A stretch of DNA of 64,000 nucleotides from an uncultured Solirubrobacteraceae bacterium (lineage in GTDB: Bacteria; Actinomycetota; Thermoleophilia; Solirubrobacterales; Solirubrobacteraceae), in contig CAWETE010000001.1 of assembly GCA_963811895.1 (NCBI GenBank), positions 76,160 through 140,159 of the forward strand, written 5' to 3'. Position 1 is the first letter of the stretch; each line of letters starts with the position of its first letter. The notes beneath the pieces were generated by a model. The model did no database searches. It saw only the letters and a program-made list of their open reading frames with translations, and was not told the origin of the DNA. A program made the translations under genes and the position numbers. Shown in pieces: positions 37,998 to 51,007 of the stretch.

Positions 37998-39329
37998 CTA
38001 GCGCTTGAGCTTGAGCGACAGGGTCGTGCTCTTCGAGCCCAGCGAGACCTTGACGCGGAGCTTGACGCTGCGGGCGTTGTCGAGCGCGTTGCGGGCGCCG
38101 CGCGTGAAGCGCAGCTTGACCGTCGCCTTGCCGGCCTTGACACGCTTGCTGCCCGAGGCGACCTTGAGGCCGCGGTCGGTGGCCGTGGCCTTCACGCGGC
38201 CGGCGGACGGCGCCGTGACCTTGACCGCGAAGCCCTTGCGCAGCGCCGTCGCCAGCTTGGTCTTGACGGCCTTCGCCTTCAGGCCGCCGCCGGAGGGGCC
38301 GCGGCCGGCGGGCACGGCGGCGGGGCCCCAGTCGGGCTGCGAGCCGCCGGGGATGACGAGCGGAGCGTTCGGCGTCGCGCCGTCGAGCGTGCAGCCGCCG
38401 GCGAAGCTCGGCACGGTGACGACCTTGATGCCGTCGTCCTCGGCCCACGCGAGCCGCCCGCCGTCGGGGGCGAAGGTGGGGGTCGAGTAGTGCCCGTTGG
38501 GGCCGCTGTAGCGGTAGCAGATGCTCGGGCGGGTGGAGACCGGCGCCTCGCTGTCCTTGAAGGTGGTCGGGAACTGGGGGACCGAGTACACGGTGAGCGT
38601 GCTGTCGTTCTCACCCGTGGCGAACGCCATCTTCGCGCGGTCGCGCGTGATGTCGCCGCCGCTCGTGTGCGGGTTGCCCTCGACCATGTCGCTGAACCAG
38701 TTGTGGACGAGGTTGCCGGAGTCGCCGTCGCTCAGCGTGTCGAGGATCACGTCGGCATTCGGCATGTGCGTGGGGTCGCTGAGCATCGTCGTGTCCTCGT
38801 CGACCCACACCGGGTTGCGCCAGCCGGTGTGCTTGCCGAGAGCGGGGTCGTCCCAGCCGGTCTGGCGGTCGGCCCACGAGTAGCCGGTGCCGCCCTCGTT
38901 GATCCCGACGAAGCAGGTCGGCGGGAAGCAGGTCGGGCTCTGGCTCTGGGTCATGTAGTGGAACGTGTAGGCGACCTTCGTGCCGTCCGGCGAGATGGCC
39001 GGGTCGAAGGGGCCGTAGAAGGTCTTGGCGGGAGCCGGCCGCGTGTCGCTGACCGGGGTGTCGAAGTCGGCCAGCACGTTGCCCTGGCGGTCGAGCCGGT
39101 GCAGGCGCACGCCGGTGAGGGCGATCATCGTGCCGTCGTCGGCCTGCGAGACGTCGGCGTAGCGGCCGCTGGTGGTCACGCGGTACTGGCGCGAGCCGTC
39201 GCCGGTCGACAGCCAGACGTCGCCGCCCTTGATGTAGGCGATCGAGTCGGCCATGGCGGCCGGCGCGGCGATCACCAGCACGAGCAGCGCGCCGCACACC
39301 GCGAGGAGTCGGGAGAGGGGGGAGGACAT
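37998..39329 (-). CDS. Secreted hypothetical protein, probable beta-propeller (PD40/TolB-like) with Lys-rich C-terminal tail
   Basis: ATG 39329 with gggggagg RBS. Signal peptide MSSPLSRLLAVCGALLVLVIAAPAAMA. 443 aa. C-terminus KAKAVKTKLATALRKGFAVKV...LKLKR. Confidence 0.65.
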   Translation of the reverse strand: MSSPLSRLLAVCGALLVLVIAAPAAMADSIAYIKGGDVWLSTGDGSRQYRVTTSGRYADVSQADDGTMIALTGVRLHRLDRQGNVLADFDTPVSDTRPAPAKTFYGPFDPAISPDGTKVAYTFHYMTQSQSPTCFPPTCFVGINEGGTGYSWADRQTGWDDPALGKHTGWRNPVWVDEDTTMLSDPTHMPNADVILDTLSDGDSGNLVHNWFSDMVEGNPHTSGGDITRDRAKMAFATGENDSTLTVYSVPQFPTTFKDSEAPVSTRPSICYRYSGPNGHYSTPTFAPDGGRLAWAEDDGIKVVTVPSFAGGCTLDGATPNAPLVIPGGSQPDWGPAAVPAGRGPSGGGLKAKAVKTKLATALRKGFAVKVTAPSAGRVKATATDRGLKVASGSKRVKAGKATVKLRFTRGARNALDNARSVKLRVKVSLGSKSTTLSLKLKR

Positions 39330-39882
39330 GGCGACGATCGTGGACCGCGCAACCAGCGCCGGCATCGGGGGAACCCCTAATGATCCGGGTATAGGCGCGA
39401 GATGTCGCGCTTCACGGAACGCATCACGCGTCACCTCGGGCGGCCGGTCGAGGCCGCGTGCGCCGTCCGGCCGCCCTTCACCACGCTGGCGATCGCGCTC
39501 AGGGCCGGGGCGGGCGCGGAATCGGCTCGCTCCTTGGGCGGTCCGCTGCTGGCCGCCTGCCGGTGGCCGATCGCCGCCTACGTGATCCTCTGGTTCGAGA
39601 CGCGGGGCAGCGGCACGAGCCTGAACATGGCGCTCGTGCTCTTCGACGAAGAGGTCGAGCTGGTGCAGCTTCGCGTGATCGGAAACCCGCTGGTGAGGAC
39701 GCTGAGCTCGATCCCCTACGCCGACATCGCGGGCGTCGAACGTGGATGAAGGGTTCCTCGAGCTCAAGGTCACGATCCGCACGTCGCGCGACACGCTCAA
39801 GGTGGCGGGCGGCAAGCGCGGCATCGGCGCGGCGCCTCCGGTGATCGATGAGCTGCGGCGTAGGATCGCGATATGAAGGTCG
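39033..39882. repeat. Copy 1 of an ~850-bp tandem direct duplication (5' end of the beta-propeller gene, the divergent promoter region, a small plus-strand gene and the first 11 nt of the glyoxalase gene)
   Basis: 39033-39470 is ~99% identical to 39889-40345 (about 5 differences). The small-gene bodies are only ~75% identical. Both copies end ...ctgcggcgtaggatcgcgatATGAAGGTCGT. Confidence 0.8.
39402..39876 (+). pseudogene. Small hypothetical membrane protein, paralogue copy 1 (frameshifted near 39730)
   Basis: MSRFTERITRHLGRPVEAACAVRPPFTT... is homologous to 40261..40734. After ...PYADIAGVE the frame must shift +1 to continue ...VDEGFLELKVTIRTSRDTLKVAGGKRGIGAAPPVIDELRRRIAI*. In-frame stop at 39749. 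Confidence 0.55.
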
Positions 39883-39888
39883 TTGGTG

Positions 39889-40188
39889 GGAGCGCGGCCG
39901 GGTGTCGCTGACCGGGGTGTCGAAGTCGGCCAGCACGTTGCCCTGGCGGTCGAGCCGGTGCAGGCGCACGCCGGTGAGGGCGATCATCGTGCCGTCGTCG
40001 GCCTGCGAGACGTCGGCGTAGCGGCCGCTGGTGGTCACGCGGTACTGGCGCGAGCCGTCGCCGGTCGACAGCCAGACGTCGCCGCCCTTGATGTAGGCGA
40101 TCGAGTCGGCCATGGCGGCCGGCGCGGCGATCACCAGCACCAGCAGCGCGCCGCACACCGCGAGGAGTCGGGAGAGGGGGGAGGACAT
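39889..40188 (-). pseudogene. Duplicated 5' fragment (start codon, signal peptide, first ~100 codons and promoter) of the beta-propeller gene 37998..39329
   Basis: ATG 40188 with the same gggggagg RBS. Encodes MSSPLSRLLAVCGALLVLVIAAPAAMADSIAYIKGG...DTPVSDTRP, identical to the parent. Then it runs into unrelated sequence. Confidence 0.7.
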
Positions 40189-40260
40189 GCCGACGATCGT
40201 GGACCCCGCAACCAACGCCGGCATCGGGGGAACCCCTAATGATCCGGGTATAGGCGCGAG

Positions 40261-40734
40261 ATGTCGCGCTTCACGGAACGCATCACGCGTCACCTCGGGC
40301 GGCCGGTCGTGGCCGCGTGCGCCGTTCGGCCGCCCTTCACCACGCCCGCGATCGCGATCGGGGCCGGTGCGGGCGCCGCGATCGGGTCGATCGTGTGGGG
40401 CGGGCCGTTCATGGCCGCCGCCGGTGTCGTCGTCGCCTACCTGATCCTCGGGCTGGCCACGCGGGGCAGCGGCAGGACGCTGGGCATGGCGCTCGTGGTC
40501 GAGGACGACCACGTCGACCTGCTCCAGATGAGCGCGTTCGGCAACCGGCCGGTGGGGACGCTGCGGTCGATCCCGTATGCCGACATCGCCGGCGTCGATA
40601 CGCGCGACTGGCTGCTCGAGGTCCGGATCGCCATCCGGACGAACCAGGACGTGCTCGAGCTGGCGGGCGGCAAGTTCGGCGTCGGCGCGGCGCCACCGGT
40701 GATCGAGGTGCTGCGGCGTAGGATCGCGATATGA
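40261..40734 (+). CDS. Small hypothetical membrane protein (157 aa), paralogue copy 2; possibly a bacterial PH-like (bPH/DUF304-type) fold
   Basis: MSRFTERITRHLGRPVVAACAVRPPFTTPAIAIGAGAGAAIGSIVWGGPFMAAAGVVVAYLILGLATRG...IEVLRRRIAI*. Two hydrophobic segments, then a soluble C-domain. The fold guess is unverified. Its stop overlaps the glyoxalase ATG (ATGA). Confidence 0.5.
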   Translation: MSRFTERITRHLGRPVVAACAVRPPFTTPAIAIGAGAGAAIGSIVWGGPFMAAAGVVVAYLILGLATRGSGRTLGMALVVEDDHVDLLQMSAFGNRPVGTLRSIPYADIAGVDTRDWLLEVRIAIRTNQDVLELAGGKFGVGAAPPVIEVLRRRIAI

Positions 40735-41132
40735 AGGTCGTCCACACCTGCGTACGCGTCCGCGACATCGACGCGTCGGTCCGCTTCTACGAGGCGCTGG
40801 GCTTCGAGCGCCGGGGCAAGCTCCAGTTCGAGACCGCCTACAACGTCTACATGGGCCTGCCGGGCGACGGCGACACGCTCGAGCTGACCGTCAACCACGG
40901 CCGCGAGGAGCCGTACGACATCGGCGAGGGCTACAACCACATGGCCATGACGGTCGGCGACATCCACGCGGTCGTCTCCAGGCTCGCCGACCACGGCATC
41001 GAGCCCGAGAAGGCGCCCTACCACCCGGGCGGCCGCAACGAGCTCGGCCCGATCTGCTTCGTCACCGACCCGGACGGCTACCGGATCGAGCTGATCGCCG
41101 GCGAGGAGTTCCCCACCCCGCAGGACGACTAG
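40731..41132 (+). CDS. VOC-family protein / glyoxalase I-like (lactoylglutathione lyase family)
   Basis: 133 aa. MKVVHTCVRVRDIDASVRFYEALGFE...GYNHMAMTVGDIHAVV...GYRIELI. Confidence 0.75.
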   Translation: MKVVHTCVRVRDIDASVRFYEALGFERRGKLQFETAYNVYMGLPGDGDTLELTVNHGREEPYDIGEGYNHMAMTVGDIHAVVSRLADHGIEPEKAPYHPGGRNELGPICFVTDPDGYRIELIAGEEFPTPQDD

Positions 41133-42469
41133 CCGGCCGCGAGGTGGCGCAGCCCGTTGATGCCGGGCGCGAAGTAGTACTCGCCGCCGCGCATCGTGAC
41201 CACGCGCGACAGCGGGCCGCAGAAGAACGGCGGGCGGCCGGGGACGGTCATCTTGTTGATGCTCTCGTTGTCCATCGGGCCGATGATCGGGTCCTGGTCG
41301 TCGCCGAGCCGGAACGGGTTGCCGGTGTTCGCCCACTGGGCCTGGACGAACTCGAACTGGCGGGCGAGGCTGACCTGGACGGTCATGAAGATCACGCCGC
41401 GGTCGGCGCCGTCGTCCTCGGCTCCCTCGGGCAGCATCTCGCCGTAGGTGATGCCGCGGCGGATCAGGCGGTGGCGGTTCACCAGCTTGCCCTCGAACGG
41501 CATGCTCAGCCGCGGGTTCATGCGGCGGATGTGCGACCCGACCGGGCATCGCAGGCCCTCCGGGTCGCGCCCGTAGTCGAACGCGTTGTTGCGCGTCTTG
41601 TCGGCCACCACCGCCGGGTCCTCGGCGTGCGGTGAGGAGTCCAGCGGCGTGCCGTCGCGCCAGCGGCCGACGAGCTTGGCGGCCAGCAGCTCCTCGCCCC
41701 CCGGATAGAGCGCCGCGGCCTGCTCGAGCTGGCGGCGGAAGGCGGCGACGTCCTGGCGCAGCTTGCGGTAGACGACGTAGGAGCCGTTGCGGCTGAGCTC
41801 GTCGGGCCGCGGGGCGGCGGGCAGCGTGCCCTGCTCGTCGGGGTAGCCGAGGATGAACTCGCCGGCCGCGATCGGCCGCCACTCGCCGTTCTTGGCGGGG
41901 GCGCCGGCGCCGGGATGGTCGTCGAAGCGGCTGCCCTCGATCGCCGGCTGGGAGAACCCGTCGGCGTAGCCGAAGTGCTCGCGGCCGGTGGGCAGCACGC
42001 CGCCGACCTGCGTCACGACCACGCTGGCGCCGCCGCGGCGCTCCACCAGCTCGCGGATCGCCCGGTCACGCTCGGCCAGCGCCGCCGCGTCCTTGGCGCT
42101 GATCATCACCAGCACGTGCGCGTCGCGCCTGCGAAAGCAGGCCTCCCAGTGCTCGGGTGCGCTCTCGCCGACGTCGCCGAGCAGCTCCGCGCGCGAGGCC
42201 ATGCCGTCGCGGAACTCGGCCGGGAAGCCGGCCAGCGAGTCGTCGCCGACCCCGAGCGCCCGCAGCCCTTCGCAGCTGAACGCGAGGTTGATGCCCGAGT
42301 CGGGCTTGACGTCCCAGCGCTCGGCGGTGATGACATCCGCGATCGAGTCGCTCAGGAAGGCGCGCGCCTTCACCGCGTCCTCGACGCGCAGGAACAGGTA
42401 GCCGGCGGCCGGCAGGCGGTAGCCGCGGACCAGGAAGCCCTGGATGTTGGGGAAGTCGAGCGCGGTCAG
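41129..42469 (-). CDS. Dye-decolorizing (DyP-type) peroxidase, long C/D-class-like form; no canonical start codon, putative CTG start overlapping the upstream stop
   Basis: DyP motifs: N-terminal (L)TALDFPNIQGFLVRGY, GYADGFSQP (GxxDG), proximal-His region GSHIRRMNPR. No ATG/GTG/TTG in frame between 42470 and 42679. CTG 42469-42467 forms CTGA with the TGA of the upstream gene. Confidence 0.6.
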   Translation of the reverse strand: MTALDFPNIQGFLVRGYRLPAAGYLFLRVEDAVKARAFLSDSIADVITAERWDVKPDSGINLAFSCEGLRALGVGDDSLAGFPAEFRDGMASRAELLGDVGESAPEHWEACFRRRDAHVLVMISAKDAAALAERDRAIRELVERRGGASVVVTQVGGVLPTGREHFGYADGFSQPAIEGSRFDDHPGAGAPAKNGEWRPIAAGEFILGYPDEQGTLPAAPRPDELSRNGSYVVYRKLRQDVAAFRRQLEQAAALYPGGEELLAAKLVGRWRDGTPLDSSPHAEDPAVVADKTRNNAFDYGRDPEGLRCPVGSHIRRMNPRLSMPFEGKLVNRHRLIRRGITYGEMLPEGAEDDGADRGVIFMTVQVSLARQFEFVQAQWANTGNPFRLGDDQDPIIGPMDNESINKMTVPGRPPFFCGPLSRVVTMRGGEYYFAPGINGLRHLAAG

Positions 42470-42999
42470 AACGCCTCCAGGAAGCGCGCCTTCAGCGCCT
42501 CCGGCTCGAGCCCCTGCGCCTCGAGGGCGAAGGCGATCGCGCGCGCCCGCATGTCGAGGTTCGCGCGCACCTGCTCCAGCGTCTGGCCGCCGTAGGCGGC
42601 GAAGAACAGCGCCGCCTCGAGCTGGTGCGCCTTGAGCCAGGGCGCGAAGCCGGGGCCGCGGCCGGGATAGCCGCGGCAATGGCCCCAGACGGCGTCGGCG
42701 TCCTCGCCGAGCCCCGTCTGCAGCTGCTCGAGGTAGGCGTCGAGCTCGCCGTCGAAGTTGCTGGTGAACAGCAGGCGGGCCGCGGCGAGCGAGTCGCGGC
42801 GGCGCTGCCCGTGGCCCTGGTACTTGACCTGGTCGATCACCACCCAGCGGCCGAGGTGCGTCCCGGGCACGCGCGCGAGCGGGCTGGCCTCGCCCTCGGG
42901 CAGCGCGTCGAGGTGAGCCGTCAGCTCGGCCGCGTGACCGTCGAGGATCGGCGTGATCACGGTCAGCGCGTACGCCTGGCCTGAGACGTTGCGGCTCAT
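42466..42999 (-). CDS. Uncharacterised conserved protein (177 aa), paralogue B of a tandem pair upstream of the DyP peroxidase
   Basis: ATG 42999 overlaps the paralogue-A stop (ATGA). Shares with A: TV(L/I)(S/T)P, H(F/Y)ARWVV(V/I), L(M/L)F(E/T)SNF(N/D)G, D(Q/A)Y(I/L), W(G)...GYPG. No family recognised by eye. Confidence 0.55.
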   Translation of the reverse strand: MSRNVSGQAYALTVITPILDGHAAELTAHLDALPEGEASPLARVPGTHLGRWVVIDQVKYQGHGQRRRDSLAAARLLFTSNFDGELDAYLEQLQTGLGEDADAVWGHCRGYPGRGPGFAPWLKAHQLEAALFFAAYGGQTLEQVRANLDMRARAIAFALEAQGLEPEALKARFLEAF

Positions 43000-43547
43000 A
43001 GGTCGTGCTGGATCGACGTCAGCATGTCCTCGTAGGCGGCCTTGAACGCGGCCGGATCGAGCGACGGCGCGCGGGCGCGCAGGTCGTCGAAGGCCTCGAC
43101 CACCTTGGCGGCCGAGATGATCTCGGTCGTCGTCGAGCCGGGATAGGCGTTGTAGTAGTGGTTGGCGACGTACTCGTTGGCGCGGATGTAGTCCTTGAAC
43201 GGCTCGACCGGGATCGGGCCGGGGAAGCCGTAGGACGTGCCCCAGATGCCCTTCATGCGCGAGGGCACGACCTCCGAGAAGGCGTCGATGTACTGGTCCC
43301 AGCTCCCGTTGAAGTTGCTCTCGAACATCAGGTACGGGTGGTGCAGCTTCTCGCCGCCCTCGCCGTCCGGGAACCGCTTGACCACCACCCAGCGGGCGTA
43401 GTGGATGAACGAGAGCATGTGCAGCTTCTTGAGCGTGGCCGTCACGTTCCGGCCGACCCAGAACACGATCGGAAGCAGCAGCCGGCCGGCCGGCTTGTAT
43501 GGGGAGAGGACGGTGATCGCCGTCGCCCTGCCCTCGACGTTGGCCAT
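42996..43547 (-). CDS. Uncharacterised conserved protein (183 aa), paralogue A of the tandem pair upstream of the DyP peroxidase
   Basis: MANVEGRATAITVLSPYKPAGRLLLPIVFWVGRNVTATLKKLHMLSFIHYARWVVVKRFPDG...YLMFESNFNGSWDQYIDAF...IWGTSYGFPG... Confidence 0.55.
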   Translation of the reverse strand: MANVEGRATAITVLSPYKPAGRLLLPIVFWVGRNVTATLKKLHMLSFIHYARWVVVKRFPDGEGGEKLHHPYLMFESNFNGSWDQYIDAFSEVVPSRMKGIWGTSYGFPGPIPVEPFKDYIRANEYVANHYYNAYPGSTTTEIISAAKVVEAFDDLRARAPSLDPAAFKAAYEDMLTSIQHDL

Positions 43548-45163: not shown

Positions 45164-45472
45164 TCACAGCGTCTCGTAGTCGATCTCGAGGAAGTCCTTC
45201 ACCTCGGCCTGCCACCGGTCGTTCACGAACGCCACGTGGTCGGGATGCTCGTTGTACGTCTGGTAGGCGTCCGGCCCCGCGAACTCCATCGAGCAGCCGA
45301 AGCGGAAGTCGTTCTTGGGGCTGACTTCGCGCAGCAGCTCGTACGTCTCGACGCCGGGGATGGCTCCCAGCGCGGCCTGCGCCGCCAGGAAGTCGCGCTC
45401 CTGCTCGGAGCCCGGCTCGTGGACGAGGGTGAAGGACACGGTGTGCCGGATTCGGCCGGGGGTCAGGGTCAT
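45164..45472 (-). CDS. Dabb-family (stress-responsive dimeric alpha+beta barrel) protein
   Basis: ATG 45472. 102 aa: MTLTPGRIRHTVSFTLVHEPGSEQERDFLAAQAALGAIPGVETYELLREV... Confidence 0.7.
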   Translation of the reverse strand: MTLTPGRIRHTVSFTLVHEPGSEQERDFLAAQAALGAIPGVETYELLREVSPKNDFRFGCSMEFAGPDAYQTYNEHPDHVAFVNDRWQAEVKDFLEIDYETL

Positions 45473-45482
45473 CGGCGGGAGG

Positions 45483-47283
45483 CTAGACCGTCCCCGTGAT
45501 CGACCACTGGCCGATGCGGCCGCCGACCGGGATGTCCGGACCGGTCGGGCCCTGGCCCCAGAAGAAGTCACCGATGTTGGTGACGCCGCCGGGGGCGATG
45601 TTGCCCATCGACCGGTACACGACGCCGCTCGGCTCCTTGTCGATCGCCATCTGCGCCCAGGCGTTGCGGACCGTGAGGGCCGGCAGCGTCCACCAGAGGA
45701 TCTGGCGCGGGAACAGGTAGCTCGCGAACGTGCCGCCCGTGCCGCCGCCGACGCAGTAGGCGTTGGTGTGGAAGCCGTTCAGCATGTGCAGGCCGTCCAT
45801 CGTGCCGCCCCAGCGGCCGAAGTAGTTGTGCGTGCCGTTGGTGTCGCGCAGCACCTGGCAGGACTCGAGCTGCATCCACTCCAGGTCGCGGTCGCCCCAG
45901 CGGGCGTCGCCGGGCGTGATCTCGGTGTCGTCGATCGAGCTCTTGAACGTGAAGCCGCCGGACCAGCCGTGGCCGGTGTACCACTGGGCGTCGACGTTGT
46001 CGACGTAGAGGTGGTCCCAGCCGCCGAGGGCCTGGCTCTTGAAGTCCTTCTCGAGTGCGGCGAAGCCACGCCAGTCGAAGGCGGTCGGGACGCGAGTGCG
46101 CGGCCATCACGTTCTTGAAGCCGATGGCGGAGTCCTGCGCGCACTGCCACTCGTCGACGGTCTGCTCGATGCCGACGTCGGTCGGGCCCACGGCCAGCTT
46201 GCCGAAGCCGCCGCCGCCCGGAGTGGTCTCGGCGCTCGCCGTGCCGTCGCCGTCGAGGGTGACGGAGGCGGTTGCGCTCAGGCCGTTGCGGTCGGTGACC
46301 TCGAGCGTCACGGTCTCAGCATCGGTCGTCTTGCCGCGCGGGCGCCGCTCGAAGGCGATCTGCTCGCCCTCGTTGTCGGTCAGCGCGGTGCTCGACGAGG
46401 ACCACTTGTAGACGGAGCCGTCGCCGGCGGCCTCGCCGAGGATCTTCTCGCCGCTGCGGCTGACCTCGATCTTGGCCTTCGGGCCGATGCCCTCGATCGC
46501 CGGGACCTGCAGGTGCGCCTGCTGGCCGCGCTCGCTCGACGGGTTGCAGGTGTAGCTGGGGTAGATCGTCTCGACGGCGCCGAGCGCGGGCAGCAGGTAG
46601 CCGAGCGTCGGCTCGCCCTGCTGGACGCCCTTGTCGTAGAGCTGCTCACAGGCCTTGCGGGCCTCGTCGGAGGGGATGATCGGCTCCTCGCCGGCCTTCT
46701 CGAGCTTGCGCAGCGTGCTGGAGAGCTGGGTGACGGTGCCGTCAGGAGCGAAGGTGATGCGCAGCTTCGCGCCCTGGCCGGTGGCCGGCAGCCCGCCGAG
46801 CGTGAGGTCGTGCGACACCGTGGTGTCGAGCGCGTACTCGTTCGTCGGCTTGCCCGCGCGGTCGGAGAGCGTGAGCTTGGCGTGCGAGACCTTCGGGTTG
46901 AGCTCGAGATCCAGCTTGCCGAGCAGCTCGGTGAGCCAGGACGCCCGCTCGAGCGCATCCTCAGCACCGATCGGCTTCAGCCTGGCGAGCGCCCGGGTGT
47001 CGAGCGACTCCGAGTCGGTCCGCCGGCCGGCCTCGTCCTTGCCGGTGGCGACCTGCCGCGTCGGGACCTTGGCGAACTCCTCGCTGACGTAGCCGAAGGC
47101 GCCGTTCTCCTGCAGGGCGTTGGGGATGCGGTACGCCTCGGCGAGCTTCGCGCCCTCGTCGGCGGTCATGCCCTCCTGCGTGACTTTGTAGACCGGGGCG
47201 GTCTCGGCGGCCGATGCCGGCTGCGCCAGGACGAGTGCGACGCCTGTGCCCGCGAGGGCGGCGGCGACGGTGGTGCGCTTCAT
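45483..47283 (-). CDS. Secreted hypothetical protein (~600 aa) with a conserved Cys/Trp/Gly-rich C-terminal domain; one frame change near 46090
   Basis: ATG 47283. Signal peptide MKRTTVAAALAGTGVALVLAQPASAA. ORF 45568..47283 is coherent to ...DEWQCAQDSAIGFKNVMAAHS, then the sequence continues in the frame of ORF 45483..45875: ...RVPTAFDWRGFAALEKDFKSQALGGWDHLYVDNVDAQWYTGHGW...YCVGGGTGGTF...GQWSITGTV*. Confidence 0.55.
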
Positions 47284-47376
47284 CCTGTCTCCTGGATGTA
47301 GGGGGGTGGGGGCGCACCACCCTGGACAGGGGCCCTTGGCCGAAGCTTGGGCCGACTTTGGACGAACTTTGGCGGG

Positions 47377-47922
47377 TCAGGCGGCGAGCGCCTGGCGCGC
47401 GCGGAACAGCCGGCTCATGATCGTCCCGGTCGGCACGTCCATCGTCGCGGCGGCCTCCTTGTAGGAGAGCCCGAGCAGGTCGACGGCGACCAGCGCGTCG
47501 CGCTGATGCTCCGGCAGCTCGGCGATCTTGGCGTACAGCTGGCGGGCCTCGAACGCGCGCTCGGGGTCGGCGGCGCGGCTGGACTCGTAGCGCTCCATGT
47601 CCTCCGGCGCGGTGGCCGTGGCGGGGCGGCGGGCCAGCGTGCGGCGGTTCGAGATGAAGGTGTTGCGCAGCACGCGCAGCAGGTAGCCGAGGTCGTCGCC
47701 GTTGGTGACGAGGCGCGGCTTGGAGAGCACGCGGACGCAGACGTCCTGGACGAGATCCTCGGCGTCGGCGGGCGAGCCGGTCATGCCGAGGGCGGCGCGG
47801 TACAGGCGATCCAGATGGTCGCCGAGGCGGTTGGCGTCGAGGACGTGGGGAGCTGCGGCGGGGGCCGGCTTCAGTCGGGCGGAGACGCCGTAACGGGGGG
47901 CGGCAAGTGCGAGCGTCGTCAT
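47377..47922 (-). CDS. ECF-subfamily RNA polymerase sigma factor
   Basis: Region 2 (DAEDLVQDVCVRVLSKPRLVTNGDDLGYLLRVLRNTFISNRR) and region 4 (LPEHQRDALVAVDLLGLSYKEAAATMDVPTGTIMSRLFRARQAL). ATG 47922, or an internal start slightly downstream. Confidence 0.8.
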   Translation of the reverse strand: MTTLALAAPRYGVSARLKPAPAAAPHVLDANRLGDHLDRLYRAALGMTGSPADAEDLVQDVCVRVLSKPRLVTNGDDLGYLLRVLRNTFISNRRTLARRPATATAPEDMERYESSRAADPERAFEARQLYAKIAELPEHQRDALVAVDLLGLSYKEAAATMDVPTGTIMSRLFRARQALAA

Positions 47923-47992
47923 GCCGAGCAAGCTCCCAGCGGCCTCCCCCCGCAACCACGGGGGGACCCCCTGAACCAACCCCCTCAACCCC

Positions 47993-48089
47993 AAGGGGGG
48001 TCTGACCCCCCTTGCTCTGTCGCGCGGCACGCGAACGGCTCTACAGCGCGGTTTCGGCCTCGGCGATTAAGGGGGGTCTGACCCCCCTT
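47993..48089. repeat. Two identical 21-nt G6/C6 perfect hairpins (aaggggggtctgaccccccctt-type; 47993-48013 and 48069-48089) 76 nt apart, plus G/C-run-rich spacer, between the LAL regulator 3' end and the ECF sigma start
   Basis: Each is a 9-10-bp perfect stem with a 1-3-nt loop. A third, imperfect G6-a-C5 motif sits at ~47960-47975. The region contains no ORF. Confidence 0.6.
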
Positions 48090-48095
48090 GGGGTG

Positions 48096-51007
48096 CTAGT
48101 GGGCCGCTCGGGTGCGGCCGACGGCCTGGGCGACCTCGGCGCGGGAGGTGACGCCGAGCTTGGCGAAGATGCGCGTGAGGTGGCCCTCGACGGTCTTCTC
48201 GGAGAGGAAGAGCTCGGCGCCGATCTCGCGGTTGGTGCGGCCCTCGGCGACCAGCTCGGCGATCTCGCGCTCGCGGCCGGAGAGGGCGTCGAGGCCTTCG
48301 CCGCTGGCGCGGCGCTGGCGGGCGGAGACGCGCTCGCCGAGCCGGCGCAGCTCGCGCGCGGCCTCGTCGCGGTAGCGGGCGGCGCCGAGCTGGGACAGCT
48401 CGGACTCGGCGCGGGTGAGCTCGGCCACGCCCTCGTCGCGCCGCCCGGCCGCGGCCAGCGCCATGCCGGCGAGCGTCCGGCAGCGCGCGGCGGCCAGCGG
48501 GACGTCGACCGACTCGGCGCGCTCGGCGCCTTCGAGCGCCAGCGTCGCGGCGGCCTCCGCGTCACCGGCCTCGAGCACGACCGCGGCGCGCGCGTGCAGC
48601 ACCCACGCCTCGGCCAGCGGCAGCCCGAGCCCGCCGACGATCTGCTCGCCGCGCTCCGCCCACCGCACGGCCGCGTCGCGGTCGCCGCGAGCGAGCTCGG
48701 CACGCGCCAGCGCCGCGTACATCCACGCGCGCCGGCCCGGCTCGATCGAGGGGAGGTCCGGCAGGCCGACGGCGCGCACGGCGGCCAGGCAGCGGTCGAC
48801 CTCGCCGAGGTCGGCCCACAGCACGCCCAGGTGCGCGTGCGTGCCGCGCGTGAGCACGCTGTCGTCGAGCCCTTCGAGCAGGGCCACCGCCTCGTCGCCC
48901 GCGGCGCGCGCCCGGTCGACGTCGCCGAGATCGGCCACCGTCCACGCGTTGGCGACCAGCGCGAACACGACCAGCTGCCGGTTGCCGGCCAGCCGCGCGG
49001 CCTCGACCGCGCCGTCGGCGGTCTCCGCCGCCTCGGCGAGGAACCCGCGCGTCTGCAGCGCATGCGCGAGCCCGATCATCATCGGGACCACGAACTGGCC
49101 CTGGCCGATCGCGCGCGAGACGTTGATACCGCGCCGCAGGTGGCGGATCGCGTCGTCGTAGTGCTCGCAGAAGAACTCCGCGAAGCCGAAGTAGTACGGC
49201 GCGTCGAGCCGCAGCATGAGCTGGTCGTCGGGCAGCGCGTCGAGGAGCGCCGCGCACTGCACGCGGGCGGCCTCCGCGGCCTCAGGGTCGCCCCGGTTGT
49301 ACTCGGCGAAGCACAGCAGCGCCGTGGCCAGCGCCTCGAGCCCGCGGTCGCCGAGCCGCCGCGCCGTCTCGGCCGCGCGCGTCGCCCACTGACGCATCGC
49401 CTCGAAGTCGCTGTCGTAGAGCGCGTCGGCGGCCAGCTCGGCGTGCAGGGCGGCGGCCGCCGCGCCGTCCTGGTCGTCGAGCGCCTGCAGCGCGTCGAGC
49501 AGCCGCGCATGAGCCGCGTCGTGGCGGCCGAGCAGGTTCTCGCACGCCGCGCACGCGGCGATCAGGCGCACGCGCAGGTCGGGCAGCTCCACCAGCGCCA
49601 GCGCCTCGACGAGCGCCTCCAGCGCGCGCTCGAGCCGCCCGGTGGCGGCCAGCGCGCCCGCCAGCGGGACGAGCAGCCCGAGCCGGCGCACCGGGTCGAC
49701 CGCCGCCGGCTCGGGCGGAGGCGGCACAGGGCCGGCCGAGTCGCCGCCCAGCAGGCGCAGCGCCGCCTCGAACCAGCGGGCGGCTATCGCCGGCGCGCGG
49801 GCGGCGGCCTGGTGGCCGGCCTGCTCGAGCACCGCGGCGGCCGCCTCGTCGCCGATCTTCGCCGAGCGCTCGACGTGGTGCGCGCGCGCCGCCAGCGCAC
49901 CCGGCCGGTCGGTCAGCGCGGCCGCGGCGCGGGCGTGCGCCTCCAGCCTCCACGCCTCGCCGGCGCCGTCGTACACCGCGCGGCGCACGAGCGGGTGGCG
50001 GAAGCGATAGCGGCGCGCAACGTCGGTCGGCCCGGCGATGTGTGCGGCCAGCAGCTGGTCGAGCGCGGCCAGCGTCTCGCGCTCGTCCATGCCGGCGGCG
50101 GCGCCCGCGAGGTCGAGGTCGAACGGCTCGCCCGCCACCGCGGCGCCCCAGCCGAGCCGCCGGGCCGGCTCCGGCAGGCCGGCGATCTCCTGGCCGAGCG
50201 CGGCCGCCACGGCCGGCGGCACGCCCACGTGCTCGCCTCCGTGCCGGGCTCGGCGGCGGCCGGCGCGGGCGCCCGCGCCAGCTCCTCGAGGTAGAACGGG
50301 TTGCCGCCGCTCTGGCGGTAGATCGCCGGCAGCGCCGGGGCGCCGAGCAGCACGCCGGCCTCGGCCTCGGTGAGCGGTCCGAGCCCGATCTCGCTCACGA
50401 GCCCGTCGCGGGCGGCCTGGTCGAGCGCGGCCAGCAGGCTGTTGGGCACCTGCCCGGCGCGGAAGGCGAGCGCGATCAGCACGGGCGCCGGCGGCGGGCG
50501 CCGCAGGAGGTGGGCGATCAGCTCGAGCGAAGCATCGTCGGCCCAGTGCACGTCATCGAGCATCAGCACGACGGGATGGCCCATCGCCAGCCGCTGCAGC
50601 AGCGCGCGGACCGCGCGGTAGGCGTGGAAGCGCTCGTCCTGCAGGCCGCCCGCGCTCGCCCCCGAGCCGGCCGACGGCAGCACGCGCGCGAGCTCGGCCA
50701 CGCGCTCGCCGATCAGCGCCTCCAGCTTGCGCTCGCCGAGCGTGCCCACGTGGTCGTCGAGCGCGTCGATCCAGATCCCGAACGGCACTTCGAGCTCCAG
50801 CTCCGCGCCACGGCCCACGAACACGGCGTGCCGGCGCTCGGCGGCGCGCTCGGCGAGCTGGCCGAGCAGCCGCGTCTTGCCGATCCCGGGCTCGCCGCTG
50901 ATCACCAGGAAGCGGGCGCGCGCACCGCGCAGGCCGTCCAACGTGGCATCGATCGCCGCCAGCTCCTGGCGGCGCCCGACGAACTGCTTCTGCTGCGCCA
51001 GCGTCAC
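48096..51007 (-). CDS. LuxR-family large ATP-binding (LAL / STAND-type) transcriptional regulator: N-terminal AAA/P-loop NTPase, central TPR-like helical repeats, C-terminal LuxR HTH; one frame change near 50240
   Basis: GTG 51007. Walker [12 protein letters not shown] and Walker [13 protein letters not shown] in ORF 49913..51007. After ...[12 protein letters not shown] the frame switches to ORF 48096..50228 (...[23 protein letters not shown]...). C-terminal [42 protein letters not shown]. Confidence 0.7.

Follow-up and report, generated by a model that had tools for sequence, protein, structure and literature searches.

The natural substrates and roles of DyP-type haem peroxidases are an acknowledged open question, especially for the intracellular class V (C-type) enzymes (PMC8197335, PMC10820274). 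The partner systems listed for these enzymes are EfeUOB, encapsulin and the Sco/ECuC/DtpA copper operon, and physiological roles have been described as unclear (PMC8197335, PMC9719856). The enzyme of Deinococcus radiodurans, DrDyP, has been placed in class C/V, contains a six-coordinate low-spin haem and is inactive with H2O2 at pH 7.5; its authors consider the physiological substrate to be unknown and ask what event triggers activation (PMC10820274). The DrDyP gene, DR_A0145, adjoins the gene for the catalase-like protein DR_A0146, which has no catalase activity (PMC6300522). We analyzed a 64,000-nucleotide stretch of DNA from an uncultured Solirubrobacteraceae bacterium (contig CAWETE010000001.1, positions 76,160 to 140,159; hereafter the window), in which a class V DyP gene is preceded on the minus strand by two genes, A and B, whose products belong to an unnamed family (the AB family). 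Comparative sequence analysis suggests that DrDyP-like class V peroxidases have a conserved partner, often fused to them, in this large, unannotated, ABM-like family.

Gene A (43547..42996, minus strand) starts with ATG and encodes 183 amino acids, comprising a predicted ferredoxin-like alpha+beta domain followed by a helical tail, with the motifs HYARW (43389-43403) and FESNFNG (43305-43325). Gene B (42999..42466) also starts with ATG, encodes 177 amino acids and carries the motifs HLGRW (42844-42858), FTSNFDG (42748-42768) and WGHCRGYPG (42661-42687). The two proteins are 29% identical (E 2e-17) and are thus the paralogues that an initial annotation, made from the DNA letters alone, had taken them to be. 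The DyP gene (42469..41129) encodes a class V (C-type) haem peroxidase of 446 codons when counted from a CTG at 42469. The A stop and B start codons overlap as ATGA (42999-42996; GTGA or TTGA in relatives), and the B stop codon (TGA, 42468-42466) overlaps the inferred DyP start (CTG, 42469-42467) as CTGA (42469-42466). On re-examination of the sequence, the coordinates, the 4-nt overlaps and the two junctions given in the initial annotation all hold.

We then asked how widely this arrangement is conserved. In a genome scan based on A and B, every sufficiently long locus had the order A, B, DyP; the organisms were Solirubrobacterales, Thermoleophilaceae, Frankia, Kineosporiaceae, Acidimicrobiales, Ideonella, Undibacterium, Methylumidiphilus, Isosphaeraceae and one metagenome-assembled genome (MAG) labelled Dormiibacterota. 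To avoid ascertainment bias, a second search was begun from the DyP. A tblastn search of plasmid records with the window DyP gave 79 records, and an AB-family open reading frame (ORF) adjoined the DyP gene in 12 of the 15 loci inspected. These included A-B-DyP in Granulicella; AB-AB-DyP-SRPBCC in Bradyrhizobium; TetR, ferredoxin, FAD reductase, P450, catalase-like, AB and DyP genes in Methylorubrum; TetR, catalase-like, AB and DyP in Brucella; AB-DyP-catalase-like in Rhodococcus; catalase, ester cyclase, AB, DyP and efflux genes in Terrarubrum; and DyP-AB-catalase-like in Rhizobium rosettiformans. The remainder of the 12 were Deinococcus, with the order TetR, 3-hydroxyacyl-CoA dehydrogenase, AB, DyP, catalase-like, and Nostoc, Gloeothece and two Streptomyces plasmids. 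Many more plasmid records have AB next to DyP, as judged by coordinates alone. Synteny of the two therefore covers Actinomycetota, Pseudomonadota, Planctomycetota, Acidobacteriota, Deinococcota and Cyanobacteriota, plus the single MAG labelled Dormiibacterota. The three loci with no AB neighbor (Streptomyces NBC_00826, Ralstonia and Nonomuraea) speak against a link that embraces all such peroxidases; their class V DyPs, at 31-33% identity to the window DyP, are the most distant of those inspected, and the association with AB is therefore a property of one DyP subclade (at least about 35% identity to the window DyP). Within that subclade, a conserved functional linkage of A/B and DyP is very probable. 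The coupling proposed in the initial annotation, which had suggested a neighborhood check in other Actinomycetota, was thus borne out there and beyond by conserved order, plasmid loci and fusions, for one subclade of DyPs rather than for DyPs in general.

The linkage extends to D. radiodurans, where the DrDyP gene is directly preceded by an AB-family gene (E 1e-26), as is the DyP gene of the window. In the record for chromosome II / plasmid 3 of this organism (L080, 4151-7384), DrDyP lies between a 243-amino acid 'hypothetical' AB gene and DR_A0146, and a 3-hydroxyacyl-CoA dehydrogenase gene and a divergent TetR gene are found upstream. Deinococcus differs from the window in having one B-like gene and a catalase-like gene instead of two paralogues, and its genes do not share the CTGA overlap. 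A term search of PMC6300522 and PMC10820274 found no mention of the AB-family gene upstream of DrDyP.

Proteins in which AB and DyP are joined were found in Rhizobium ruizarguesonis and Sinorhizobium medicae. Plasmid p2 of Pararhizobium qamdonense (L078, 2670-6941) encodes a 1,423-amino acid protein annotated as 'cytochrome P450' that consists of P450, A-like, B-like and DyP domains. In the published description of DyP subclass V4, 'some transmembrane regions' stand between a P450 and a DyP domain (Biochem Biophys Rep 2022, PMC9719856). The Pararhizobium protein has this architecture, with the P450 N-terminal and the DyP C-terminal, but the part between them matched the AB family twice (E 7e-13 and 3e-32) and is made up of these two domains. 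Fusion or adjacency of the AB module was also seen with y4iL-like catalase-family proteins, of which DR_A0146 is the Deinococcus member. The minimal conserved unit is one B-like protein and a DyP, and the second component may be either an A-like paralogue or a catalase-like protein. The two-paralogue module put forward in the initial annotation was confirmed as a conserved A-B-DyP order, but it is not universal: in many bacteria a single B-like gene is accompanied by a catalase-like one. No description of the AB family or of its link to DyP was found in the literature searched, which covered y4iL, catalase-related and DyP operons, and DyP neighborhoods.

Neither protein could be assigned by sequence. 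B had no match in Pfam-A at E values up to 1, and A had only a chance-level match to DUF5106 (E 0.05); neither matched NCBIfam, and sequence searches of the PDB with A, B and family profiles gave no match. Neither A nor B matched the hidden Markov models of the Pfam ABM (PF03992), SchA_CurD or Dabb families. Nevertheless, B had 767 homologues in word-indexed searches and A had 1,066, and 117 of 120 B homologues among the matches listed are 176-181 amino acids long. A profile search of 1.84 billion cluster representatives gave 3,407 clusters (at 50% identity) at E ≤1e-3, and 364 at E ≤1e-30. We examined the architecture of the best 150 representatives of the 3,407. Eighty-three of these are 260-520 amino acids long, and the 82 complete ones are all tandem two-domain proteins; 46 are shorter than 260 amino acids and almost all single-domain, and four (P0241, P0242, P0277 and P0342; 860-964 amino acids) are A-B-DyP triple fusions. 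A further domain of about 300-450 amino acids is present at one or other end of approximately 16 representatives; it gave weak matches to Pfam Catalase and showed homology in tblastn searches to 'catalase family protein' genes, including y4iL on the plasmid of Sinorhizobium NGR234 (E 5e-52).

The commonest order in two-domain proteins is A-like followed by B-like (74 of 103). In the tandem protein P0244, the N-terminal domain is 41% identical to A and the C-terminal domain 38% identical to B, so that A and B are the counterparts of the N- and C-terminal halves, respectively, of the tandem form. Single-gene forms align to the B-like half, indicating that the B-like copy is the one kept in these versions. 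Residues conserved across the family (A numbering) are His49, Arg52, Trp53, Phe75, Asn78, Gly81, Tyr86, Trp102, Gly107, Pro109, Phe117 and Tyr135. In addition, residues 105-113 of B (42661-42687) form the motif W-x-H-C-x-G-x-P-G, in which the Cys is present in at least 90% of the B-like domains of two-domain and paralogue-pair forms. This Cys, which could be a ligand or redox residue, is absent from the A-like domain and from single-gene forms that adjoin catalase-like genes.

Structure prediction placed the family in a known fold class. The AlphaFold2 (AF2) model of the fused protein P0244, with a predicted local distance difference test (pLDDT) score of 91.4 and a predicted template-modelling (pTM) score of 0.91, contained two ferredoxin-like alpha+beta domains, and its nearest structural relatives were tandem ABM/SchA-like polyketide proteins, namely WhiE-ORFI (9LMN), the decarboxylase AbxO (9LTX) and the putative monooxygenases 3F44 and 3MCS. 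Single-domain ABM, TcmI, SnoaB and HmoB followed, and Foldseek agreed. The paired beta-alpha-beta-beta-alpha-beta domains of the model are those of a dimeric alpha+beta barrel (DABB/ABM-like). In contrast to the tandem ABM/SchA-like proteins, to which they have no sequence-level relationship and a TM-score of only 0.37, the AB proteins have extra helices in each domain and a haem peroxidase, rather than a polyketide synthase, as genomic partner. There is thus good support for the view that A and B each supply one half of a pseudo-dimeric ABM-like barrel, constituting an unnamed family in this class. The initial annotation had found A and B impossible to assign to a family, which remains true of sequence databases but not of structure. 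Since tandem fusions dominate the family and the single-chain model is confident, A and B are likely to form a heterodimer. In keeping with this, the products of an overlapping gene pair are often subunits of one heteromeric complex (PMC10666635). We also considered whether A and B could be divergent, split half-DyPs of the CDE superfamily. Alignment of DyP with A/B by hhalign gave a probability of 0.2%, and the best Foldseek match to a DyP had an E value of 0.02 and a TM-score of 0.22, which ruled out this idea.

The DyP of the window has the sequence features of class V. It matched PF21105 DyP_N with 47.7 bits (cut-off 27.5) and TIGR01413 with 115.5 bits (cut-off 100.5), while the match to Dyp_perox_C, at 19.7 bits, lay just below the cut-off of 20. 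The closest solved structure is DrDyP (8RE2/8RE3; E 6e-83), with an end-to-end alignment from residue 4. Strong matches in the PDB (E ≤1e-33) were all to class V proteins, namely DrDyP, an ancestral D-type DyP, B. adusta DyP, A. auricula-judae DyP, AnaPX and DyP2, and the sole other match was a weak, partial one to EfeB (E 1e-4). The GXXDG motif is present as GYADG (41957-41971, residues 167-171), the proximal-His motif as GSHIRRMNPR (41510-41539, residues 311-320) and the distal-Arg motif as LIRRGITYG (41441-41467, residues 335-343), and each aligns with the corresponding segment of DrDyP. We take these motifs to hold the catalytic residues established for DyPs in general, and on this basis the active site is intact. 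The length of 446 amino acids is within the approximately 440-500 of class V (the former C and D types), and taken together, the two-domain matches, motifs, length and relatives identify the protein, at the level of sequence, as a class V DyP-type peroxidase. It has no predicted signal peptide, the N-terminus being the first strand itself. In the EfeUOB, encapsulin and Sco/ECuC/DtpA systems the role of the DyP is set by its operon partners, as is proposed here for the window, but the DyPs of those systems belong to class I or P and carry Tat signals or cargo peptides. The window DyP adjoins neither an encapsulin gene nor genes for EfeU or EfeO, and no Tat signal or cargo peptide is evident, although no formal cargo-peptide search was made.

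The NTGA overlap is the commonest coupled stop/start arrangement in prokaryotes (PMC12548453), and genes paired in this way frequently specify subunits of a single complex (PMC12548453, PMC6728339, PMC10666635). Both junctions of the cassette have this geometry on one strand, as expected of termination-reinitiation pairs, and the position is kept in relatives. The 4-nt overlaps themselves are therefore ordinary; the unusual part is the C in the position of N at the DyP junction, for which we found no discussion in the literature cited on such coupling. The overlaps suggest that A, B and DyP form a single transcription and translation unit; a promoter and terminator scan found neither on the coding strand within the cassette, and no known RNA or riboswitch was matched around it in Rfam at E values up to 0.1.

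We compared the B/DyP junction in the window, in 59 distinct loci from a one-genome-per-species scan (60 loci less one duplicate contig) and in two loci from a search with protein B. ATGA was found in 22, GTGA in 18, TTGA in three and CTGA with no alternative start in three (the window, L004 and L043). A longer overlap with a canonical start was seen in three (L045, L050 and L054), and other spacings in eight, mostly gaps followed by a normal ATG or GTG in proteobacteria and Isosphaeraceae; five assemblies were frameshifted or unclear, and in one the DyP end was off a short contig. Three related contigs found through protein B share the A-B-DyP triad, with the DyP called at 445 amino acids from within the overlap, and have TTGA (L001 and L003) or ATGA (L002) at the junction. 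A DNA pattern scan of metagenomes and the look-up of one contig gave four further CTGA contigs. CTGA is thus present in five other assemblies of the same lineage, L075, L004, L066, L070 and L074, which are 97.9, 94.3, 92.0, 90.0 and 86.6% identical to the window at the nucleotide level, respectively, and in L043, which represents a separate lineage with a different sequence context and whose sister L044 has GTGA. The CTG is therefore fixed in the sublineage and arose at least twice, and an ATG-to-CTG base-calling error, which the initial annotation had raised, can be dismissed.

The contig L075 (ENA contig_31331) illustrates how the cassette can be mis-annotated. It has 30 gap openings relative to the window over two alignment segments that total approximately 13.3 kb, and its genes were called in pieces: DUF6345 as 270 and 130 amino acids, B as 134 amino acids, and DyP as 414 amino acids from an internal start.

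These comparisons bear on where translation of the DyP begins. The conserved DyP core opens right at the CTG, as L-T-A-LDFPNIQGFLVRGY, in which LDFPNIQGFLVRGY corresponds to residues 4-17 of the CTG-started protein. The reading frame is open further upstream, from a TTG (42679-42677) to the stop at 41129, giving a mechanical ORF of 516 amino acids. An in-frame scan found no ATG, GTG or TTG between this TTG and the next GTG, which is codon 32 counted from the CTG, in agreement with the absence of such codons reported earlier between the N-terminal motif and 42679. CTG is on the list of permitted starts of NCBI table 11 but is very rarely used. With a start codon so poor and a frame open upstream, initiation at the TTG has some appeal, as has the GTG at codon 32, given that a gene caller chose an internal start in L075. 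However, the TTG (-210 nt) is present only in the window, L075 and L004, and is absent in L066, L070 and L074; neither L066 nor L070 has a canonical in-frame start at any upstream position, and L066 has none from -183 to +89 codons. Starting at the TTG would add 70 non-conserved residues, out of frame over the conserved C-terminus of B. The first canonical downstream codon varies from codon 12 to codon 89 among intact relatives, and initiation at codon 32 would cost the protein its first beta-strand, a segment that all orthologues conserve and whose alignment with DrDyP begins at residue 7. Both were rejected on these grounds, as the initial annotation had anticipated for 42679. Natural B-DyP fusions occur elsewhere and could favor a programmed -1 frameshift from B into the DyP frame, but there is no X-XXY-YYZ slippery heptamer at GCG-TTC-TGA, nor in relatives with GCA-TGA or GCG-TGA, and relatives differ in sequence at the junction. 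Predicted folding of the 111-nt junction RNA was marginally poorer than that of shuffled sequences (z +1.1), with no stable downstream structure, and a frameshift or other recoding was rejected. A decaying pseudogene was likewise rejected: the ratio of nonsynonymous to synonymous substitution rates (dN/dS) of the DyP gene is 0.16-0.33 within the CTG lineage, compared with 0.23-0.26 against the TTG lineage, and the gene is therefore maintained under purifying selection. Altogether, it is quite improbable that the DyP is made by any route other than initiation at the CTG. The comparative data support the overlap codon as the start through coupled re-initiation, and CTG 42469 is probably the DyP start codon. 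The initial annotation had left re-initiation and recoding as equals, of which the conserved junction position favors the former.

Comparison with sister lineages suggests how the CTG arose. In those with TTGA, B ends in Glu-Arg-Phe (TTT-TGA), whereas in the lineage of the window it ends in Glu-Ala-Phe (TTC-TGA), and the CTG appears to have resulted from a synonymous change of TTT to TTC in the last codon of B. Nine genes of the window use TTT once and TTC 99 times for Phe, with a G+C content at third codon positions (GC3) of 93.5% in a genome of 73% G+C. It is therefore the TTT of the sister lineages that is unusual, and the requirement for a TTG start presumably maintains it. In the window lineage, a return to the favored Phe codon would have sacrificed the canonical start of DyP, so that codon pressure in B would have won over the quality of the DyP start codon. 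A GGAGG that could serve as a Shine-Dalgarno-like core (42478-42474) lies 4 nt 5' of the CTG, within the Leu-Glu-Ala codons of B. Ribosomes finishing B at the UGA would re-initiate on the overlapping CUG, aided by this GGAGG, and DyP output would thereby be tied to translation of B. The GGAGG is present in the window and all five CTGA relatives of the lineage, while four TTGA relatives have GGAGC, and it could be a compensation for the CTG; L043, the independent case of CTG, has GGAGA, which makes the compensation idea weak.

With respect to function, we favor, at somewhat better than even confidence, a translationally coupled A-B-DyP unit with a CTG start in which the A/B barrel acts together with the DyP. 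The A/B heterodimer would be the two-chain counterpart of the tandem proteins prevalent in the family, and may associate stoichiometrically with a DrDyP-like class V peroxidase as the subunit responsible for binding a small molecule of hydrophobic or aromatic character. Cofactor-free oxygenation of the bound molecule by A/B may then yield a quinone or organic hydroperoxide, and A/B would pass the molecule to the haem enzyme. This small-molecule role is proposed because the ABM-like structural neighbors bind and transform aromatic polyketide intermediates, some of them as cofactor-free oxygenases. Genes that recur near the AB-DyP pair encode TetR regulators, P450 with ferredoxin and reductase, SnoaL-like ester cyclase, SRPBCC proteins, efflux pumps, alpha/beta hydrolases, and glyoxalase/VOC and Dabb proteins (the last two also in the window), and therefore fit small-molecule oxidation or detoxification better than H2O2 scavenging. 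The y4iL-like partners, whose Deinococcus member lacks catalase activity, and the inactivity of DrDyP with H2O2 point the same way. A substrate-handling A/B subunit would also explain the poor H2O2 peroxidase activity of such DyPs on their own. That the barrel binds, presents or oxygenates a hydrophobic or aromatic small molecule for the DyP is, by analogy with these proteins, a tentative suggestion.

Several observations weigh against this proposal. The A-B-DyP complex is putative, being proposed from synteny and fusions. The Foldseek TM-scores to ABM-like neighbors are low (about 0.37), the matched fold class has very diverse chemistry and also includes haem-binding proteins, and any ligand or catalytic residue of A/B is putative. 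Among fourteen diverse DyP-linked members, only an Arg, a Tyr and a Pro are invariant besides the start Met, and His is frequent but not universal. CUG, moreover, is a weak initiator in bacteria in which it has been tested with reporters, such as E. coli.

Since the fold class includes haem-binding proteins, A/B might instead serve the maturation of the neighboring haem enzymes, as a chaperone, store or delivery module for haem. We consider this unlikely: a stoichiometric covalent fusion to the client would be unusual for a chaperone, the top structural neighbors are polyketide-tailoring ABM proteins and not haem proteins, the family His is not invariant, and DrDyP expressed alone carries haem and was studied spectroscopically (PMC10820274). 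The inactive six-coordinate low-spin state in which DrDyP is locked, and the question of its activation trigger (PMC10820274), would suit a non-catalytic regulatory or scaffold subunit, for example one that gates the distal pocket of the DyP or switches the low-spin state, and tight translational coupling and fusions are what one would expect of an obligate subunit. The polar motifs HxxRW, SNFxGxxDxY and GxPG, conserved across the 3,407 clusters, suggest a binding or active site instead, and AB also pairs with catalase-like proteins, in the order DyP-AB-catalase or with no fused DyP domain, which leads us to regard a purely regulatory role as rather improbable.

A broader version of the substrate-handling proposal considers the catalase-like proteins as well. 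Catalase-related allene oxide synthase-lipoxygenase fusions join a non-dismutating catalase-like haem protein to a non-haem oxygenase that makes its hydroperoxide. By analogy only, AB is likewise fused to y4iL-like catalase-family domains, but the AB system has no lipoxygenase domain and oxygenase activity of AB is hypothetical. AB, as an ABM-like heterodimer or in its tandem single-chain form, might determine which chemistry DrDyP-like class V DyPs carry out physiologically within a multi-haem oxidative system, in which it would oxygenate an aromatic or lipid-like metabolite with O2 and the hydroperoxide or quinone would go to the DyP and, where present, also to the catalase-like protein or P450. 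We view this extension as doubtful.

The genes that surround the cassette in the window encode a glyoxalase, an M1 peptidase, a Dabb protein, a DUF6345-like protein and an extracytoplasmic function (ECF) sigma factor. A block conserved in Solirubrobacterales (45164-51007, minus strand) precedes A-B-DyP, and its gene order is shared by L001-L003 and L075. Its genes encode an AAA_16/MalT-TPR/LuxR regulator, split in the window into 49913-51007 and 48096-50228, the ECF sigma factor (47377-48030), a 571-amino acid DUF6345-like protein (45568-47283) and a Dabb alpha+beta-barrel protein (45164-45571), and the block may regulate the cassette in a lineage-specific manner. The window and L003 also have an inserted M1 peptidase gene on the opposite strand. 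On Streptomyces and Nostoc plasmids, 'hypothetical' genes of 294-346 amino acids flank AB-DyP (L081, 3950-4963 and 6377-7261; L082, 6359-7399); they match neither the AB nor the catalase-like profile and may be additional unrecognised components.

Downstream, the DyP gene and a convergent glyoxalase/VOC gene (40731-41132, plus strand) end in a common palindromic CTAG (41129-41132), so that their stop codons overlap with no intergenic terminator between them. Beyond this lies a tandem direct duplication (39036-39883 and 39895-40741) with a period of 859 bp, which covers the 5' part of a gene for a PD40/Tricorn_N-like secreted protein and reaches the start of the glyoxalase gene. The copies are 99% identical over 300 nt and 79-82% identical in other segments, and L075 and L004 have a single copy of the unit that aligns to both copies of the window.

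The CTG junction is a small but genuine oddity: it provides a natural, lineage-fixed case in which codon bias in one gene degrades the start codon of an overlapping gene, and standard gene callers will mis-annotate the CTG-started DyP as 516 or 414 amino acids. The AB family is the more valuable result. The alpha+beta-barrel superfamily gains a sizeable unnamed family of 3,407 clusters at 50% identity, and the AB domain pair re-interprets the hitherto unassigned middle part of published P450-DyP fusions. The AB partner turns the question of the natural role of DyPs into a testable form, for which D. radiodurans, with a DyP structure already in hand, is a tractable and ready experimental system. 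If the broader proposal were true, AB and DyP would belong to an unrecognised multi-haem oxidative system that is widespread in soil bacteria and on plasmids, and the DyP in it would not be an H2O2 peroxidase at all.

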